Source: a virus
Lineage: Duplodnaviria; Caudoviricetes
DNA: 64,000 nucleotides
Direction: 5' to 3' (one strand)
IMG/VR virus record: IMGVR_UViG_3300032272_000009
Span: 8,683 to 72,682 of that record
Below the pieces are notes generated by a model. That model had not been told where the DNA came from, made no database searches, and was given only the letters and a program-made list of their open reading frames with translations. A program made the translations under genes and the position numbers. Shown here in pieces: positions 3,443-64,000 of the stretch (its first letter is position 1; the number at the start of each line of letters is the position of its first letter).

Positions 3443-5437
3443 ATGTCAGAATTTAAAGATTTTAGAAACGCTGTAAGCAATAAGATTGATGCCTTGGAAG
3501 CATCTGGGTTGCTATACACCGATACAGATAAAGATGAACTGTGGGAAGCGTACTTGGAGAGTTTCAAAGAAGGAACAAATCCCATATACAAAGAGCGAAC
3601 TGAACATGACTGCCAGTGTTGCAAACAATTCATTCGTGCATGTGGATCAGTTGTTGCAATCGTTGATGGTGAGCTTGTCTCTGTCTGGGATATTGAAGTT
3701 GGCGGTATCTATCAGGTCGTTGCTGATGCGCTGTCAGCACTTGTAAAATCAAATCATATCAATAACAAGTACCTGCATTACGAAGCACAGATCGGTGTTG
3801 AGCGCAATCATCAAGTTGTAAAAGGCGGAAATGTAAAGGCTTGGGATCACTTCAGTCACGTTCTTGGTCAAGCTTATGTAGTCAAAGATGGAACAATTGA
3901 TTCCAAATTAGGATCTCACAAAACCTCTATTCAGACTTTTAATAGGGCATTAGAATCAATCACGCCTGTGTCTGTTGATATTGTTCTTGATCTTATGGAT
4001 CAAAACTCTCTATATCGTGGTGAGGAACACAAGGCATCAGTTGAGAGATTTAAAGCTCACCAAGATAAATATAAAGCTCTTGACGACAAACAGAAGGGGT
4101 TTTATTTATGGTCAAACACAGATATGGGTGTTGCCGGAATTCGCAACTCTGTTATTGGCTCACTACTGGTTGACCTGTCAGAAGGGAAAGAAATTGATCA
4201 AGCTGTGAATAGTTTTGAAGACAAGGTATCGGCTGGAAAATACAAACGCACAATGGCTGTTGCGACTAAAGGTATGATTGACAAGGCAGAAGCAAAATTT
4301 AACAAGCTTGGTTTGCATGATTCTATTGATCGCAGATATGCTTATATGGATGATTTGACAATCAATAACGTAATCTTTGCCAACAGAGCAACAAAAAAAT
4401 CATTTAACGTATTTGACGAAATGAAAAACGAAGTGTCAGTTGATGTGTCGAAATTTGATAAAGTAGAAGAGATTGGTATCGATGTATTTATTCGAGATGT
4501 GCTTCCAAAAGCAGATGCAATTGAAATGATGTTTGCAAACAATCATATAAATAACTTGGTAAGCCTGATTGCACCAGAAGTTGCAAGTGCGCCTAACATT
4601 TTAAAATGGGATAATAATTTCTCGTGGTCTTACAATGGTGAAGTTGCAGACTCTATCAAAGAGCGAGTAAAGAATGCTGGTGGCAATGTTGATGCATATA
4701 TGCGTGTTTCATTATCTTGGTATAACACTGATGATTTAGATATTCATGTTATCGAGCCTAATGGTAATGAGATATTTTATGGTAGCAAAATATCTCATGA
4801 CACTGGTGGCAGATTAGATGTTGATATGAACGTTAACAGCTTAAGGCGAGATGCAGTGGAAAACATCATGTGGGCGAATGAAAACAGAATGATTGAAGGT
4901 GAATACAAAGTTTTCATTCGCAATTATACACCTCGTGAAACTGTTGATGTTGGTTTTGAAATTGAAACAGAATGGAATGGCAAGATCAAAAACTTTGCTC
5001 ATCCTAAGAGAGTTACCAAGGATGTATCTGTATTGACGTTCACTTACTCAAAGGCTGGTGGCGTCAGTATCAGAAGCGAAATGAAAGAATCAAATATCGT
5101 TAAAGAGGCATGGGGGATCAATACTCAAGGTTTCCATAACGTCTCAATGGTAATGAATTCACCTAATCATTGGGATGGCGAATCAACGGGAAACAAACAC
5201 TGGTTCTTTATGCTTGATAAATGTAACAATGAGAAACCATCAAGAGGGTTTTATAATGAATTCTTGAGAAATGAGTTTAATGAACACCGTAAAGTGTTTG
5301 AATTATTAGGCTCGAAAATGAAAACAAAGGTTTCTGATAATCAACTTAGTGGACTGGGTTTTTCTTCAACAAAGAGAGATTCGGTTCTTTGTAGGGTGAG
5401 TGGTAGTTTTAACCGTGTAGTAAAAATCAACTTTTAA
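3443..5437 (+). CDS. Large uncharacterised phage protein with a YfaP/DUF2135-like domain
   Basis: 664 aa; HDCQCCKQF Cys cluster; RVSLSWYNTDDLDIHVIEPNG...GRLDVDMN...AVENI matches the YfaP-like pattern. Confidence 0.7.
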   Translation: MSEFKDFRNAVSNKIDALEASGLLYTDTDKDELWEAYLESFKEGTNPIYKERTEHDCQCCKQFIRACGSVVAIVDGELVSVWDIEVGGIYQVVADALSALVKSNHINNKYLHYEAQIGVERNHQVVKGGNVKAWDHFSHVLGQAYVVKDGTIDSKLGSHKTSIQTFNRALESITPVSVDIVLDLMDQNSLYRGEEHKASVERFKAHQDKYKALDDKQKGFYLWSNTDMGVAGIRNSVIGSLLVDLSEGKEIDQAVNSFEDKVSAGKYKRTMAVATKGMIDKAEAKFNKLGLHDSIDRRYAYMDDLTINNVIFANRATKKSFNVFDEMKNEVSVDVSKFDKVEEIGIDVFIRDVLPKADAIEMMFANNHINNLVSLIAPEVASAPNILKWDNNFSWSYNGEVADSIKERVKNAGGNVDAYMRVSLSWYNTDDLDIHVIEPNGNEIFYGSKISHDTGGRLDVDMNVNSLRRDAVENIMWANENRMIEGEYKVFIRNYTPRETVDVGFEIETEWNGKIKNFAHPKRVTKDVSVLTFTYSKAGGVSIRSEMKESNIVKEAWGINTQGFHNVSMVMNSPNHWDGESTGNKHWFFMLDKCNNEKPSRGFYNEFLRNEFNEHRKVFELLGSKMKTKVSDNQLSGLGFSSTKRDSVLCRVSGSFNRVVKINF

Positions 5438-50473: not shown

Positions 50474-51817
50474 TCATAATCCTTTAATTGTTTTGCTGGA
50501 CATAGTATTTCTATTAATTGGAAACTTCATATGAATGAAGTAACCGAATGAGTCATTGATATCATCAATAGAGCTACCGCTGGTCTTTTCTGGAAGCTCT
50601 GTAGCTTTATTATATACCTGTTGCTCAAGTGCATCAGCAACCTTTTCACATTCTCTTACATTTACTTTGATAAGTCCAGTCATAAATGCAGAATTTACAC
50701 TTTGCACTCTTTCCATTATCCGAGGATTTTTCTGCGGATATTTACAGTGAAAACCAGCAGCTTTTAGCAATGAAATATCTGACGTTGTAAATCCCTTTGA
50801 GCTTGTGTTTTTTCCTGAAGCATCAGGGTAACAGTACACAGGAGACCGTGGGTAGCGCTCCCTAATGACCTGAATCATCTCTGGGGTATCCATGATGTTA
50901 GTCAGGTGTTTGACAGCATGGAAGCTGTTATAGCCTTCATAAACAAATAGTGGATTGCTAGTAAATACAGGGTCACGCTCAACAAATACAACCCCGTTCA
51001 TATTGGTAACATTGAAATCTAGTGAGATATGGATAGCCTCGCCATCTCTATATATTGCATCACTACCACACAGTATTCTATCGTACTGCTTGTAGACCGC
51101 ACCTACCGCCATGTTGACGAACTTACCATTGATGTAAGCTTCTACTAACTCAGGCGGATATATCATCTTCAGATTATCATAATAATCTTTTGGTAGATGA
51201 ACGTTCTCATAACCACTAGCTTGTATCAGAGTGTAGTTATCAGGCTTGTTCTTTTCAAACATTTGATACAAGAGGCGATAGCCTTCTGGAGTCGAGCCAA
51301 CTATCATTTGATTGATAAGCTCTATCTCTTCGCCATTCTCATCTAGTGCTATTGTGCCATCTTCGTTAAATACATTTACTTTCTTACGTGCCCGAGCAAG
51401 TGCTTTGATCCAAACCTGTCTTGCTTTGTCAGTTGGTAGGGTATCCAGCTCATCAAGTAGCACAGCAAACACATTCATACCAACAATTGTGTCGGGATTG
51501 TCCATTGACTTCAGGATTACCCGCCCACCTGCGTCAAAGTAGATTTCACCCGTTGTTTTATTGATCTTGTATTCGATACCAGTGCCTTCTAGTACCTCAA
51601 CCAAAGTTGGGAATAGAATGTCACGGAACATTGAGTAGGTAGGTAGTAGATAGAGTAAATCTACTTTAGGATGGCGAAGTTTAATATCAACCATCTTATT
51701 GACAAGCGAAAAAGTCTTACCACCTCCAAAACCAGTGACAAAAGCTACCGCTTTAGAAAAGTCGTCGTCATAAAACTGTGTTTGACTTTTTGTAAGTTCA
51801 ATTACTCTTTGTTGCAT
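50474..51817 (-). CDS. terL: Terminase large subunit
   Basis: GFGGGKT, VLLDE, STPEG, ISLDFNV, YPDASG, DDINDSFGY. Confidence 0.95.
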   Translation of the reverse strand: MQQRVIELTKSQTQFYDDDFSKAVAFVTGFGGGKTFSLVNKMVDIKLRHPKVDLLYLLPTYSMFRDILFPTLVEVLEGTGIEYKINKTTGEIYFDAGGRVILKSMDNPDTIVGMNVFAVLLDELDTLPTDKARQVWIKALARARKKVNVFNEDGTIALDENGEEIELINQMIVGSTPEGYRLLYQMFEKNKPDNYTLIQASGYENVHLPKDYYDNLKMIYPPELVEAYINGKFVNMAVGAVYKQYDRILCGSDAIYRDGEAIHISLDFNVTNMNGVVFVERDPVFTSNPLFVYEGYNSFHAVKHLTNIMDTPEMIQVIRERYPRSPVYCYPDASGKNTSSKGFTTSDISLLKAAGFHCKYPQKNPRIMERVQSVNSAFMTGLIKVNVRECEKVADALEQQVYNKATELPEKTSGSSIDDINDSFGYFIHMKFPINRNTMSSKTIKGL

Positions 51818-52073
51818 TTAGCTATCGATCTCTTTTACTGCATCAATTATTACACCCTCCATATGTCTAAGAGCGCCAATCATTGTTACGTTCTTGTTTA
51901 GATTAGCATAACTATAAGTGATTGTTCCTTCATCGTCAACTAATACAATGACACAATTCACAATATTTAGCCTGTCAAGGTCTTCTTTAGCATTCTCAAA
52001 GGCTTTATCTACTGTTTTCTTTGTGTGGCTCTCCCCCGAATAGATGAGTTACATTGTTTGTTTTCTTAATCAT
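51818..52073 (-). pseudogene. Small phage gene interrupted by one extra A (frameshift or sequencing error)
   Basis: MIKKTNNVTHLFGGEPHKE, then the +1 frame TVDKAFENAKEDL...IGALRHMEGVIIDAVKEIDS; 256 nt = 85 codons + 1; coupled at both ends. Confidence 0.65.
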
Positions 52074-52441
52074 AAAGCCTCCACGTGAAGTAAAACAGAA
52101 CCTTCTTTTGATATCTCTGGTGCATAGTCCATAGATAGTTTACGCACAAATGAGTCATCCTGCCAGAAATGAGCATGAGTTAAAGAGTCGAATAGGCATT
52201 TTAAAACGTTGTCTATATCATGAACCCTGTTATCTTTCGGTGTTAGAGTTATTGATACAGATAGAGGAACATTCGCTCTTAGTTCAAGGTCTTTTGATTG
52301 GATTATCTCTTGGACTCTTATGCGGTATTGCTCACCCTTTGTCTTTATGAACTTGCGAGGCCTTTTTGCATTACAGGCCATTCCATAGTAATCATTTACC
52401 GATGGAGGGAAAGGGAGAACTATTAGGTATCCGGTTTTCAT
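52070..52441 (-). CDS. rusA: RusA-like Holliday junction resolvase
   Basis: LPFPPSVN.YY, DNRVHDIDNVLKCLFDSL.HA.FWQDDS. Confidence 0.88.
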   Translation of the reverse strand: MKTGYLIVLPFPPSVNDYYGMACNAKRPRKFIKTKGEQYRIRVQEIIQSKDLELRANVPLSVSITLTPKDNRVHDIDNVLKCLFDSLTHAHFWQDDSFVRKLSMDYAPEISKEGSVLLHVEAL

Positions 52442-52643
52442 TTTAAGGGTTCGCTTTTTGTCGTTATCTTTATTCGTGGTTGTAGGGGTGGCGGTTTGAA
52501 ACAGTATAACATGATTTTGGTGCGATTGCAATGTAGGCGGTTTCTTATTATCGGGTGGTAGAATTAGGTTAAAATTGGCGTTTTCAAATTTTTTAGGCGG
52601 ACTATGGCGTTGGCACGATGAAAATTTACGAAGGGGTGAATAC

Positions 52644-52659
52644 TGGCACGAGTATTGCT
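52644..52659 (+). promoter_or_regulatory. sigma54 (-24/-12) consensus site
   Basis: TGGCACGAGTATTGCT. Confidence 0.6.
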
Positions 52660-53004
52660 AGGAGATATTTGCGTAACGAGCGCAACACGGATTTTATGTT
52701 AAAAAAAATGCCGGACTGAAAAATAAGTCAAGCATTTGATTTGCTATGTTAGTCTCGTCCTGCGAACCATGTTATAACTATTGCAAGAACCAACAAAAGA
52801 AAAGTCATCTATTCAAAAACGCATATAGAAAAAGTTGTTTTTTAGATCATACTTTAAATTACTGAAACCAAAAATCCTACCTAGCGAATACACTTCTTTA
52901 TCAGAGTCAAGTAAAATCTTTTTCATAACATTACCAACAAAGATATAAAGCGGAATTTGTTTTTTCTTTTTCATTATGTACACCTCACAGTAAAAACAAT
53001 ATGT

Positions 53005-53045
53005 ATAAAATCAGAGCCTAGGCTTTTTTGTATGCCTAGACTCTG
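53005..53045 (-). terminator. Probable terminator downstream of 53053-53604
   Basis: CAGAG-x-CTAGGC / GCCTAG-x-CTCTG hairpin followed by ATTTT. Confidence 0.55.
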
Positions 53046-53052
53046 TTTATTT

Positions 53053-53604
53053 TTATCCTGCCAGACTCTGAAAAAATTCCCTGTACGCTAGGAACTCCTC
53101 GAAGTATTCTGTTCTGTGCGGAGCATCTGCAATCAATCCAGAATTCAAGATTTCATCATGCGTGAATTTTGGATTTGCTCTGACCCACTCTGCAATTTTT
53201 CCCATGTGACCAGAATTATTAAACTGTTTAAACTTCTTACTCGCTGTAACTGTTGACTTGTTCACACCAGAAAAATCAACAATGGCCTTTTCAACTTCAG
53301 AATTTGAAAGTTGTGGGATTTCTAAAGTGCTGGCCAGCTTTTGCACATCCAGAAAATGGCTGATTGATTTACCTTTAATATGCTCTTGCACCTTTGCTTG
53401 CAGTTTCTCAGGCGTCAGAATCCAATCATTGGCCAGTCCTACACTCTTAATTGTGTTTTGAATGTCTGAGAAGGCTACGCCATTTTGCGTCAATAGCAGG
53501 GCTGTCTCATCCAGAGAAACCCCCTTGTTGAAATGTTGGTCAATGATACCAGCGATGATTTTTTTGTTGCTTGCTGCTGTAGTTTTTTTAGTTGCTGAAG
53601 TCAT
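53053..53604 (-). CDS. Uncharacterised early protein, paralog of 54360-54938
   Basis: Start MTSATKK behind an AAGGTG SD; own promoter and terminator. Confidence 0.75.
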   Translation of the reverse strand: MTSATKKTTAASNKKIIAGIIDQHFNKGVSLDETALLLTQNGVAFSDIQNTIKSVGLANDWILTPEKLQAKVQEHIKGKSISHFLDVQKLASTLEIPQLSNSEVEKAIVDFSGVNKSTVTASKKFKQFNNSGHMGKIAEWVRANPKFTHDEILNSGLIADAPHRTEYFEEFLAYREFFQSLAG

Positions 53605-53673
53605 AATGTTTATCACCTTTAATAATCAAGAAAATTAAAATGGGCTTTTCTTGTTTACCCTCACTTGTTACCA

Positions 53674-53701
53674 AGTATACACCATGCAAAACATTATGCA
53701 A
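53674..53701 (-). promoter_or_regulatory. sigma70-type promoter, 16-bp spacer
   Basis: TTGCAT-N16-TATACT on the minus strand. Confidence 0.65.
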
Positions 53702-53768
53702 CATTTTAAAACATTATTTTCAATTTAATTTTACTCTATATATATAGGCAAAATCAGAAAATTCTGTA

Positions 53769-53972
53769 AGCATAAAACATGCCAACAATAATTGGCCCGG
53801 TTCTTGCAACAACAAAAATCATGCCAGAAAAGTTGGCCTAAAATATGCAAGGGAAAAATCATGCCAAAACAATTGGCACGGTCGTTGCATGGTCAAAAAT
53901 CGTGCCAACTTTCTCGAACGTGGCGGAATTCAAGAATCGTGCCAAAAAAGCGTAACGGACGGAGCGGTGCCA
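53769..53972. repeat. About 41-bp periodic array of TGCCA...TGGC...TGCA units (sigma54-type sites)
   Basis: RTGCCA at 53779, 53821, 53861, 53902, 53939, 53967; GG-N10-GC sites at 53793, 53834, 53874 (+) and 53769 (-). Confidence 0.8.
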
Positions 53973-54129
53973 GAATTTTTTCCGTCGCGTATATACACCA
54001 AAAAATATACCGAAAAGCGCACTTATAAGCATGCCCGATTCGCGCTGTGAGTCGTGAAGCGAAATGAATAAATCATATATTATACAGCGTAACATACATA
54101 AATTATTTTGATTGAAAAGTTTTAACCAG

Positions 54130-54195
54130 TTGCAAAACACAAGTTGTAAAATATAATAAATATAAGCTTGCAACGCTTACTAGTTGTGTTATAAT
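54130..54195 (+). promoter_or_regulatory. Two tandem sigma70 promoters, 16-bp spacers
   Basis: TTGCAA-N16-TATAAT at 54130 and at 54168. Confidence 0.75.
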
Positions 54196-54359
54196 AAATG
54201 CTCTTGTTGAGAAAGAAGCAGAAGCACATATGTAACCGCTTAGCAATAAAAATTTTATTAGTTAAGCAAAAAATAAACTTGCAAACGATTAGAGTTTGTG
54301 AGATAATCTTAAAACTGGAATCTTCCAGAAAACACAATTAACACGGGAGTGTAAACATC

Positions 54360-54938
54360 ATGGGTAAGAAAGAAAATACAGCTATTGTAGTTGCCGGTCT
54401 GGCCGCAGGTAAATCAGATGATGCCATCTTGCAAGAACTGTTTGAAGGTGGTATTGCGTTCGGTGAGCTGCGCAATGTGTTCAATGAAGTAATCAAGGAA
54501 AAAGGTCTGCGCCTGACTGCGAAAGAACGCAAGGTCAAAACTGGTGAGCTGATGGAAGGCGTTGAAAAAATCGAAACTGTTGATGAAGTCAACAAGATCA
54601 TTGCCAAGCTGGTCAAAAGCCTTAAGGTTGCTGAGACAAAAGCAATGGGATCGCTTCGCACATGGGCTAAAGAGGCTGGTATTGAACTGCCTAAAACTCC
54701 TCGTGCTGCAAAGACTCGCAAGACTGGTTTTGGTGGTCATTACAAAAACATCCTTGATTTCATCTTGGAAAATCGTGAAGCTGACAAGGTTGCTGTTGTT
54801 GCCTTCTGTCATGCGAACAAGATTCCAGAAGCATACTCTACTCAGGCCATGAATGTTGTTCATTTTGCCAAGGTTTGGAGTGGTGAGCTGGTTGAAGAAG
54901 TTGTTACCGAAACTCCTGCTGAACCAGCAGCAACCTAA
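54360..54938 (+). CDS. Highly expressed uncharacterised early protein, paralog of 53053-53604
   Basis: 192 aa; GGGAG SD; strong CTG/GGT/CGC codon bias; followed by a terminator. Confidence 0.8.
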   Translation: MGKKENTAIVVAGLAAGKSDDAILQELFEGGIAFGELRNVFNEVIKEKGLRLTAKERKVKTGELMEGVEKIETVDEVNKIIAKLVKSLKVAETKAMGSLRTWAKEAGIELPKTPRAAKTRKTGFGGHYKNILDFILENREADKVAVVAFCHANKIPEAYSTQAMNVVHFAKVWSGELVEEVVTETPAEPAAT

Positions 54939-61638: not shown

Positions 61639-64000
61639 TTAACTCTCTCCTGATTTAACTGGCATATCAAAGGCACTGCTTAAGGTTTCACCCCAGTTTA
61701 AAGCAATCCTAAAGCCTTTCTTCTGCTTTTTAGCAGCAAGGGTAAACTTAGCATACCTAAAACCTTTTGTGGCTAGGTAGTTGCTTATAGTGCCTGCTAC
61801 TCTTGAGTCGGATATGTTAACACCAATCTCTGAACATATTTCTTTTGAGGTAAGTGTTACAAAGCTAATTGCTTCACCAATATCAGTAACACCAATCTCA
61901 CCCCTTACACCATGAATCTTTCTCCATTCATCATTCTTTTCAACGTCAAACTTCTGTTCAAGAGCTTCAATGTTTGGATCAATCCTATCATGCGACTTTG
62001 TGACAACTCTCAAATAGCTCTCCAGTTCATCATCTGGCCACCATTGCTCACCTTCTAGGTAATAATGATACATCTCAGCCCAGAATTGTTGCGTGTGGTA
62101 GCTGTCACTCATTCTTTCATGCATTTTCTCAGCTACTACAGCGGTTGGTTCCTGTTTCTCTTCAATCTTTGTTTCGCTCTTCGCTTCATTCTGACTAACA
62201 ATATCAGATGAACTAAGAATCGCTCTACCAAATGCATCAGTTTTCTTAGGTTCTTCAACAAAGTTAGAAATATCCGTGACGGGCTCTGCCTGTTTAGGTG
62301 GCGTAATCTCTTTACTTATAGAGGTATCAGATTCGGTTTCTTGGTCGCCATTAGGGATAGCAATTTCATAGAAAGGTTTTAGAAGTTTTACGTGTAAAGG
62401 TAGGTATCGTCTATTACCAGTTTTATCAACTAAAAATTGAATATCATTAACGGTACCAACAAAGGATGTCCGTCTTACAAACTTACTTTCAGAGGCAGCA
62501 TAAGGCATTCTAATCTGGTCATCTTCTTTAGATAGGAAAGCTTTAAGGCTTGATATATCAGACTTCTTGAAGGTGCTATCAAGCTCCCCCAGCTCAGTTA
62601 TCCAGTGGGATATAGCAATCTTAATATTGTCCTTGTCTTTAACATCAAGCTCATGACCTGTAAGAATGTATTGTTTTAGCTCGTTAGGAAGTAGTGACTT
62701 GATAAACTTGGTTTTCTGTATACCCTGATCGCCAACAAATACAAGTATGTGCTCATACTTGGGAACAGCAATACCCATCTTGTGCGACAATGGTGAGTTT
62801 CTAGCACTATCTAAAGCTGCGATACATTGAAGGAACCACATTCTCAACACTTTGGTTTTGTAGCGCTTTGAAAAAGATTCATTAACTCTTTCATCACTAC
62901 TGGAGCCATACACCTCAGTCTTGATATTATCAGTCACTAATTGGAGTCGTGGGTTACCATCCCACTTAACCCTAGCAACCCAATCAAGAACGGGATTCAT
63001 CTGATTTGAGTTTACCATCTCAGCAACATAGTTCACACTATCCTTGCCCAAGCCATTCAACACACAAAGGGATTTGAGCCTAGATAAACATGCGTTCATT
63101 TTGTTGTCACCATCAGGAACACTATTTGATGGAAACACTATCTCAGGTATCTTTAACACAACATCGTAACTAAACTGTATACCATAAGCCTGAGTCATAA
63201 ACTCAAAGTTCTCAACAGTATCGAAGTTCATCCTGCTCTCGCCACGATAGAAGGTGTGAGGGAACTCTAATGTAATTGGCGCACTTATGTTTCCTTGTAT
63301 CATCTCAGGGATGAAAGAGCCGTCATCTCTGATAGCATGAGATACTAGATTAAGCATTACTGATTCACGCTTAGAACCATCACCACCTTTTATCCTAGCA
63401 TAATGCTCCCTGAATGCCTTATCACACGAACTCTTCTTGAGTCCAGCATACTTAGCGAGCATAGCTATTAACTGGTCAATCTCTGTAGCCATAAAATCAA
63501 AGCGTGCTGCCTCCATAGCAGCAGTCTTGAACATTATTTTATGGTCTTTTGTATCACATACCTCAAGAGCAATTTCAGAGGCAGACTTGCGTTCACTATG
63601 TTCTAGTGCATAAACAATGCCACCATGTGCGTGACTATGTATGATCCTATTGTCTATGTCAATCCAAGCTTTTGTGGCACTCCCAGAACTACCACCATAA
63701 TCAGGCTCAAGCGGATCATGGCAGTATTCTGCATCATACAATTCAGGGTTATCAAATAAATCATGTACTGTAATCTCAACGCCTGTACTCATCTTTATAG
63801 GGTTGTCGCTGTATAACACTTTGTTAACAACACAGCTATTTAATTTGGAAGCACTAAGACCAAATCGCTCATGGTTCTTTGTTACATAAGAGTCACGGAC
63901 TGAAGTTGCCAATCCTGATCTTTTATCCTTTGCATTATCTATAAGCTGTTTGCAGCGCTCATCTTCTTCCATAGTGAGGTCGGTAATCACCCTAGTATTT
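61639..64000 (-). CDS. VirE/VapE-family (SF3-like) primase-helicase, 5'-truncated by the window
   Basis: VFVGDQGIQKT (Walker A), WITELGEL, LKAFLS...D.IR.PY, RRTSFVGTVN...FL.D.TGNRRY, QFWAE...Y..GE.WW; the frame is open to the window edge. Confidence 0.88.
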   Translation of the reverse strand, partial: NTRVITDLTMEEDERCKQLIDNAKDKRSGLATSVRDSYVTKNHERFGLSASKLNSCVVNKVLYSDNPIKMSTGVEITVHDLFDNPELYDAEYCHDPLEPDYGGSSGSATKAWIDIDNRIIHSHAHGGIVYALEHSERKSASEIALEVCDTKDHKIMFKTAAMEAARFDFMATEIDQLIAMLAKYAGLKKSSCDKAFREHYARIKGGDGSKRESVMLNLVSHAIRDDGSFIPEMIQGNISAPITLEFPHTFYRGESRMNFDTVENFEFMTQAYGIQFSYDVVLKIPEIVFPSNSVPDGDNKMNACLSRLKSLCVLNGLGKDSVNYVAEMVNSNQMNPVLDWVARVKWDGNPRLQLVTDNIKTEVYGSSSDERVNESFSKRYKTKVLRMWFLQCIAALDSARNSPLSHKMGIAVPKYEHILVFVGDQGIQKTKFIKSLLPNELKQYILTGHELDVKDKDNIKIAISHWITELGELDSTFKKSDISSLKAFLSKEDDQIRMPYAASESKFVRRTSFVGTVNDIQFLVDKTGNRRYLPLHVKLLKPFYEIAIPNGDQETESDTSISKEITPPKQAEPVTDISNFVEEPKKTDAFGRAILSSSDIVSQNEAKSETKIEEKQEPTAVVAEKMHERMSDSYHTQQFWAEMYHYYLEGEQWWPDDELESYLRVVTKSHDRIDPNIEALEQKFDVEKNDEWRKIHGVRGEIGVTDIGEAISFVTLTSKEICSEIGVNISDSRVAGTISNYLATKGFRYAKFTLAAKKQKKGFRIALNWGETLSSAFDMPVKSGES

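Follow-up and report, generated by a model that had tools for sequence, protein, structure and literature searches.

The array and its sites

The DNA analyzed here, referred to below as the window, is a stretch of 64,000 nucleotides covering bases 8683-72682 of the 72,682-base IMG/VR record IMGVR_UViG_3300032272_000009, a phage genome (Caudoviricetes) that CheckV rates as complete. Between two divergent arms of this genome, and outside both sets of sigma-70-type promoters, lies an array (53769-53972) of 16-bp units that resemble the -24/-12 binding sites of the alternative sigma factor sigma-54 (RpoN). A second, smaller cluster of such units occupies 52611-52659, and together the two bracket a conserved gene for a 187-amino-acid (aa) protein and a small gene, with which the late/packaging arm begins. 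On the comparisons presented below, this feature is a conserved member of a recurrent class of sigma-54-type phage site clusters, a class for which a full-text literature search found no published phage-borne array and which we therefore describe as unpublished.

The initial annotation of this DNA had proposed a phased set of sigma-54 sites acting as a sponge or a roadblock. Inspection of the sequence located every site that it listed, on both strands, including the exact copy at 52644 and the half-site at 52611, and the plus-strand copies at 53793, 53834 and 53874 do follow one another at 41 and 40 bp. One copy and one remnant are added here. The elements of the two clusters are listed below, with scores in bits for the family weight matrix.

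53769-53784, minus strand: S1, TGGCATGTTTTATGCT, GG-N10-GC intact, the copy closest to the promoter of the 187-aa gene; 21.1 bits
53793-53808, plus strand: S2, TGGCCCGGTTCTTGCA, head-to-head with S1 and tail-to-tail with S3; 16.2 bits
53811-53826, minus strand: S3, TGGCATGATTTTTGTT, -12 element GT; 18.2 bits
53834-53849, plus strand: S4, TGGCCTAAAATATGCA; 17.3 bits
53851-53866, minus strand: S5, TGGCATGATTTTTCCC, an additional copy absent from the initial annotation; 20.2 bits
53874-53889, plus strand: S6, TGGCACGGTCGTTGCA, exact sigma-54 consensus; 20.3 bits
53892-53907, minus strand: S7, TGGCACGATTTTTGAC, -12 element GA, the best match to the family matrix; 25.6 bits
53929-53944, minus strand: S8, TGGCACGATTCTTGAA, a distal copy after a CGTTACGC box; 23.0 bits
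53957-53972, minus strand: remnant TGGCACCGCTCCGTCC, -24 element only, likewise additional to the initial annotation
53950-53967, no strand assigned: conserved box GCGTAACGGACGGAGCGG, adjoining the array and found in most relatives, with a second copy at 52671-52690
52644-52659, plus strand: site of the second cluster, TGGCACGAGTATTGCT, exact consensus, pointing against the operon of the 187-aa gene and a 56-aa open reading frame (ORF); 18.8 bits
52611-52626, plus strand: half-site of the second cluster, TGGCACGATGAAAATT, -24 element only, inside a block conserved in relatives

A GC stands ten bases after the GG in five copies of the window (52644, the minus-strand copy at 53769, 53793, 53834 and 53874); it is missing from the minus-strand copies at 53811, 53851, 53892, 53929 and 53957 and from the plus-strand half-site at 52611.

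Enrichment and geometry

That the sites match the sigma-54 consensus and are not a product of chance was upheld by matrix and shuffle tests of enrichment. The exact string TGGCAC-N5-TTGCW occurs in the 64-kb window at 52644 and 53874 only, and all five occurrences of TGGCACG in the 72.7-kb genome fall within the clusters. Allowing up to two mismatches to TGGCAYGRTTNTTG gave 19 matches, against 7.95 +/- 2.6 in shuffled sequences; at one mismatch or fewer, eight of the nine matches lie inside the two clusters. When the genome was scanned with the family weight matrix, which was built from 56 sites of the window and ten relatives, the nine sites reaching at least 16 bits were all at 52644 and 53769-53944, and the weaker matches elsewhere stayed at shuffle level.

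The arrangement of the units is equally regular. Their orientation alternates along the array, tail-to-tail neighbors being offset by 17-18 bp and head-to-head neighbors by 23-25 bp, so that copies on the same strand recur every 40-42 bp, that is, about four helical turns and on one face of the helix. When array and relatives are taken together, the convergent offset is 17-18 bp in 10 of 12 pairs and the divergent offset 23-25 bp in 8 of 10.

Conservation in related phages

The 187-aa protein has 46 homologs, all of them metagenomic (protein homologs total 46 + 69), and the comparison of DNA involved ten related contigs with flanking sequence. Retention of the clusters in related phages, another element of the initial annotation, was confirmed in these ten contigs. 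In all relatives with enough sequence a cluster lies upstream of the promoter leading to the 187-aa gene, and in every one of them the array is flanked by the genes of two protein families, A1 (the 187-aa protein) and A2 (a 192-aa protein encoded on the other arm). Most relatives also have the second cluster, which follows the small downstream gene and its terminator and immediately precedes a conserved block and the late promoter. The number of copies ranges from 1 to 9 per relative, the arrangement switches among direct, convergent and divergent (the place of S8 is occupied by a forward copy in all relatives), and the regions do not align. Since the motif is kept while copy number and order vary in regions that cannot be aligned, selection appears to act on the binding sites, which indicates that the motif itself is under selection.

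In three relatives (L006, L011 and L012) the space from the array to the 187-aa gene has taken up one or two small genes for apparent membrane proteins, together with a second promoter-like copy; it is thus the promoter, and not the gene itself, that the array tracks. Relatives also have two TAGGCGGATACGCATATAGA boxes upstream of their array.

The family motif can be written gT-TGGCAYGATTyTTG-(c/a). Matrix frequencies are 0.99 for G2, 0.95 for G3, 0.93 for C4 and 0.92 for A5, then 0.99 for T13, 0.85 for G14 and 0.55 for C15. It fits the sigma-54 consensus TGGCACRNNNNTTGCW (Barrios 1999, in the form quoted in PMC4371752) at T1, G2, G3, C4, A5, Y6, G7, R8, T12, T13 and G14, and the purine-pyrimidine pair that flanks the consensus is matched as well. 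By these frequencies, this member of the class is degenerate at its putative -12 element. Retention of GC according to orientation was considered, and the difference (7/12 versus 6/22, p = 0.14) is not significant.

The same motif in unrelated phages

When viral contigs were scanned with a single 16-mer seed, 110 loci were recovered; leaving out the window's own family, they sort into 70 independent sequence groups. These 70 groups contain 107 further sites of at least 15 bits, compared to 2-5 in shuffled controls, and 82% of the further sites have the -12 C, a base that carries hardly any weight in the matrix. In 20 groups there are at least two extra sites, and the GC content of the loci extends from 0.29 to 0.65. 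In 17 unrelated groups at least three sites lie within 500 bp, often with the same convergent offset of 17-18 bp.

Neither A1 nor A2 is present in the fetched loci of at least 17 unrelated groups, nor in five whole records of such groups, one of which is 100% and another 94% complete. In five site-bearing records searched whole we found no PF00158 (bacterial enhancer-binding protein, bEBP), PF04552 (sigma-54 DNA-binding domain) or PF00940 (T7-type polymerase), and a phage-encoded polymerase of T7 type, sigma-54 or bEBP was accordingly rejected as an explanation of the motif. The only protein shared near the clusters of unrelated groups is terminase, as large subunit (TerL) or small subunit (TerS).

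Three phages with such sites deserve mention. In G001, a complete phage of 46,189 bp with direct terminal repeats, 17 of the 18 sites share a strand and many precede ORFs by 27-113 nt; the -12 C is relaxed here too, and no bEBP, sigma-54 domain or T7-type RNA polymerase was detected. Its sites read like the true -24/-12 promoter class, making it a candidate for a phage that may run many genes in this way; the option of a sigma-70 promoter, with TTGGCA as -35 element, was discarded, as G001 has no -10 element at the right distance. In L050 (4080-4400) the array occupies a divergent intergenic region 1.1-1.4 kb upstream of TerL and is interleaved with five copies of CATGTTGCC and three to four of GAATTTGACTCATGTT; a sigma-70 promoter comes next, and the layout as a whole closely resembles the window's. 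In Vibrio phage D419 (OZ195672.1, bases 106334-107624), one of the cultured T5-like Vibrio phages, six sigma-54-type sites, including a tail-to-tail pair, accompany three DnaA boxes and two CTGT-N8-ACAG (LexA-type) boxes in a non-coding block upstream of A2/A1-like pre-early genes, annotated only with tiny hypothetical ORFs.

Genes and promoters around the clusters

The features that surround the two clusters are the following.

54360-54938, plus strand: 192-aa gene (family A2), divergent, encoding a distant paralog of the 187-aa protein
54130-54307, plus strand: three tandem sigma-70-type promoters (TTGCAA-16/17-TATAAT type) of the rightward arm
near 53674-53679, minus strand: TATACT, the -10 element of the 187-aa gene promoter, read by eye from the sequence
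53053-53616, minus strand: 187-aa gene (family A1), with a likely ATG start at 53604 (183 aa), encoding an all-helical orphan protein
52813-52983, minus strand: 56-aa ORF downstream of the 187-aa gene, within the bracketed unit
52503-52531, minus strand: sigma-70-type promoter TTGCAA-17-TATACT with TG, serving the RusA/terminase arm; conserved in relatives and located immediately downstream of the second cluster

The late arm runs leftward on the minus strand in the order 187-aa ORF, 56-aa ORF, a gap of 280 bp, RusA, TerL, portal and tail genes, with only 250 bp and a 47-aa ORF between RusA and TerL. The second cluster lies between the 3' end of the 187-aa/56-aa unit and the promoter at 52531-52503. 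Sigma-70-type promoters flank the array on both sides, as had been reported, and no site has a sense gene at promoter distance: the plus-strand sites are 470-570 nt from the 192-aa gene with the three sigma-70 promoters in between, the minus-strand site closest to the 187-aa start stands 165 nt away from it and is separated from it by a sigma-70-type promoter, and the site at 52644 is antisense in orientation.

Several other conserved elements are found in this region. Just past the -10 element of the 192-aa gene promoter there is a perfect palindrome, CTGGAATCTTCCAG (54315-54328), conserved in relatives as CTGGAAAATTCCAG or CTGGACAATTCCAG; as a candidate operator it is more conventional than the array. 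Between the second cluster and the late promoter, a block at 52532-52640 (minus strand) is conserved across relatives in the form CACCCC .. AAATTTTCAT .. CGCCATA .. GAAAAC. TAGGCGG and GCGTAACG(G)A boxes occur at 52534, 52594, 52671-52690 and 53950-53967, two of the three window occurrences of each being beside clusters.

The array had been placed near the genome end, a point that does not stand. It is 10 kb from the end of the record, and bases 1-211 of the record recur at 72472-72682 (window 63790-64000) as an imperfect 211-bp overlap, exact for 83 bases. The genome is assembled as a circle, although the IMG/VR label is linear. Given this overlap, and given that a primase/helicase ORF spans the junction and is cut by the record ends, these ends are assembly artefacts, uninformative on the physical termini. 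We found no integrase in the phage record and no cultured close relative by nucleotide match, TerL and portal being less than 40% and less than 27% identical, respectively, to those of cultured phages; the first 30 kb of Vibrio phage KF4, a distant cousin, have no such sites. A 664-aa protein encoded at window 3443-5437 has about 51% identity to a hypothetical protein that is conserved in ViI-like phages (Ackermannviridae; PHROG 1735, E 1.6e-261).

The flanking proteins

Pairwise BLAST of A1 against A2 is not significant. Comparison of profiles with hhalign, however, gives a probability of 93.6% (E 2e-7, 129 columns), and the hidden Markov model of A1 finds A2 members and vice versa; on these profiles we accept the two as distant paralogs. 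No Pfam or PHROG match was obtained for the 187-aa protein, and no tblastn match among 50,697 phage records. Its AlphaFold model (mean pLDDT 89.7) consists of three three-helix bundles of about 60 residues each. Searches with this model (Foldseek against PDB and BFVD, VIA-align, ESM Atlas) returned nothing above the background of helical bundles; its structural neighbors are weak and mostly of helix-turn-helix type, the best reaching Z 5.3 over 50 residues and those of helix-turn-helix type in ESM Atlas a TM-score below 0.4. PDB profile matches of both families were set aside because they look compositional, and two further identities of the 187-aa protein, a small terminase and a DNA-binding protein of the T5 A2 type, were rejected at hhalign probabilities below 1%. 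A1 and A2 are unrelated to phrog_3802 TerS, the family found at other loci, and to the A2-like protein of T5-like Vibrio phages.

Which protein reads the sites

We consider the clusters to be selected docking sites for a sequence-specific protein, whose most likely identity is the sigma-54 of the host, a reading to which we assign a probability of roughly 0.4. Both the reader and every functional consequence discussed here are what we infer from sequence. The motif fits the sigma-54 consensus and is common to phages that have no candidate protein in common, which points to a conserved host reader, sigma-54 being the obvious one; the five whole records that lack PF00158, PF04552 and PF00940 likewise make a common host factor the economical choice. 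Among bacterial sigma factors, sigma-54 alone keeps polymerase parked on DNA in a non-firing state, and to our knowledge its role in phage infection is almost unstudied. Its holoenzyme sits inactive on DNA at many non-promoter sites (PMC4591121).

Under this proposal, sigma-54 would occupy the units as RNA polymerase holoenzyme in a closed, non-firing complex. Because a single polymerase footprint reaches over neighboring units, holoenzyme could fill no more than every other unit at a time, and the array would be a high-avidity landing pad and not a row of promoters. The pads of the main array precede the sigma-70 promoter that serves the 187-aa operon by 70-270 bp, and polymerase bound there might mark or insulate this small operon; the start of the late arm could in this manner be tied to the availability of sigma-54, or to an activator working from solution. 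For the second cluster one can conceive of an insulating role, with its conserved copy facing incoming transcription from the 187-aa unit. The roadblock suggested by the initial annotation is unlikely for the main array, since between divergent promoters there is nothing to block, and in E. coli bound sigma-54 holoenzyme was no roadblock on overlapping genes (PMC4591121).

Several observations weigh against sigma-54 as the reader. A polymerase of 450 kDa would be accommodated less well than a small protein by offsets of 15-18 and 23-25 bp, a packing so dense that only alternate units could be filled. The relaxed -12 C, the additional conserved GATT and the strict linkage to the A1/A2 paralogs in the window's family also speak against it. 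The -12 GC is nearly invariant in true sigma-54 sites, whereas in the family an exact GC is found in 19 of 50 cluster sites and the C in 26 of 50, T13 and the GATT stretch being better kept than the GC. Loss of the -12 GC in relatives with the paired geometry retained had been named at the outset as the pattern that would refute the sigma-54 idea, and this is largely what the family displays. The phage record contains no activator gene (bEBP, PF00158), in agreement with the initial annotation, and no upstream activator sites were recognized. Finally, the phage probably hypermodifies thymidine, to judge from its ViI-like 664-aa protein, which could alter the binding of host proteins.

A broader proposal is that many unrelated phages, this one among them, recruit host sigma-54 polymerase to dedicated clusters without an AAA+ activator of their own, the silent complex serving as an architectural or boundary factor, or being fired by an undescribed phage activator for which the flanking helical paralogs would here be candidates. 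We regard this proposal as unlikely.

Alternative explanations

The array could instead be an operator or assembly array of a phage DNA-binding protein, with the 187-aa and 192-aa paralogs as prime candidates, the main rival and one that we hold possible, if doubtful. In one form of it, which we entertain just as tentatively, each 16-bp unit would be contacted by two helical domains of one monomer, and monomers would line up next to each other along the array, creating an early/late switch around the 187-aa operon. Tight regular offsets and a conserved GATT would suit such a small protein, as would dyad units repeated at fixed spacing beside a gene; the A1 and A2 genes adjoin the array in relatives and are distant paralogs, and the predicted three-helix bundles have weak neighbors that are mostly helix-turn-helix. 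Yet the motif is clustered in unrelated phages without A1 or A2, the 100%- and 94%-complete genomes among them, and this weakens the operator for a dimeric phage protein that the initial annotation had offered as its alternative. Moreover, no DNA-binding family or fold was detected confidently in the candidates, and more ordinary operator candidates overlap the promoters, namely the palindrome at 54315-54328 and the repeated AATGTTTT around 53690-53730. A packaging (pac/cos) or replication-origin site, with phased repeats wrapping TerS or an initiator at the arm boundary, meets the difficulty that a single 16-bp specificity is not normally common to the TerS proteins or initiators of phages that are unrelated. 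The clusters do lie 0.8 and 2.0 kb upstream of TerL, sites are upstream of TerL in about 20 of 22 groups with TerL in reach, three groups have a recognized TerS nearby, and, as in origins and cos regions, further conserved boxes and AT-rich stretches are present. However, the bias toward positions upstream of TerL has a trivial explanation, being expected of any regulatory element because structural operons leave no intergenic space. No TerS was recognizable in the window (the region 50474-53616 was inspected), A1 and A2 are not of the TerS family of other loci, no contig or record end coincides with the array, and the non-coding control region has no DnaA box, the sole match in 52400-54400 being at 53339, inside the 187-aa gene. 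We therefore regard a packaging or origin function as unlikely.

A decoy, or sponge, that titrates host sigma-54 away from psp, flagellar and nitrogen promoters, as the initial annotation envisaged, would share its reader with the docking array that we favor. It is suggested by consensus-matching sites without an activator, which replication of phage DNA would multiply, and a decoy role has been suggested for bacterial non-promoter sites (PMC4591121). It is nevertheless very unlikely in our view: each genome offers two exact and about three near-consensus sites, a poor sponge with just two to five copies of consensus grade, with the -12 C lost in about half of the family copies, a sponge needs neither a fixed pair geometry nor a fixed place bracketing one operon, yet both are conserved, and the same motif looks like working promoters in other phages. 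Least probable of all, in our estimate, is that the units act as RNA or single-strand hairpins, the head-to-head pairs with a T-run forming intrinsic terminators or structured signals. A terminator scan does call two minus-strand hairpins with T-runs, at 53880-53860 and 53796-53781, from such pairs, and both strands fold somewhat better than shuffled sequences (z -2.25 and -1.95). These z-scores are modest, though, and Rfam yields no match. Partners for pairing are lacking for single copies and for the direct repeats at 15, 27 and 37 bp, and the array, being between divergent promoters, is probably not transcribed.

Comparison with known systems

With the -24/-12 promoters of sigma-54, such as glnAp2, pspA and nifH, the phage units share the TGGCA(C/T)G and TTG(C) blocks, their spacing and the flanking purine-pyrimidine, and two window copies are exact. 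They differ in that the -12 C is present in about half of the family copies, that copies face both ways with overlapping footprints, and that no gene lies at promoter distance, no bEBP gene or upstream activator site was recognized, and the flanking genes are served by sigma-70 promoters. Small proteins can also read iterated arrays, the O protein at the iterons of the lambda origin and SopB at the 43-bp repeats of F sopC being examples. The array resembles such operators and centromeres in its dyad units of about 20-40 bp, displayed on one helical face beside a gene for a small protein; in contrast to them, its unit equals the consensus of a host sigma factor and recurs in phages without the neighboring proteins.

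The non-promoter sigma-54 sites mapped in E. coli by chromatin immunoprecipitation and sequencing (Bonocora et al. 2015, PMC4591121) are similar in being sites of inactive holoenzyme outside classical promoters, and decoy and architectural roles have been discussed for them. They are single and mostly intragenic, whereas the phage sites, known from their sequence, are intergenic, clustered, phased and conserved as clusters. A conserved non-coding block with direct and inverted repeats is likewise a property of the untranslated repeat regions of T5-like phages, at which injection stops (Davison 2020, bioRxiv 10.1101/866236); some repeats of the injection-stop region match the site of a host protein (DnaA boxes), and helical phasing has been noted there (bioRxiv 10.1101/866236). 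T5-like Vibrio phages have sigma-54-type sites beside DnaA boxes in the equivalent block, whereas E. coli T5 has no sigma-54-type sites. The phage of the window, unlike those with injection-stop systems, is not T5-like, and a hub of DnaA, LexA or IHF boxes as in the Vibrio T5-like phages was looked for at the array and is absent.

Significance

With an array of 220 bp, two exact sites, ten natural variants and two candidate proteins that each fall short of 200 aa, the locus provides a compact test case. A phage protein as reader would have a specificity copied from a host sigma factor, and that in itself would suggest competition at host promoters. With sigma-54 as reader, the clusters would represent a recurrent route of lytic phages into the stress and nitrogen signaling of their hosts, or a use of parked polymerase as a DNA-bound marker. 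Should recruitment without an activator prove true, it would be a strategy of phage transcription or chromosome handling that we have not found in the literature.

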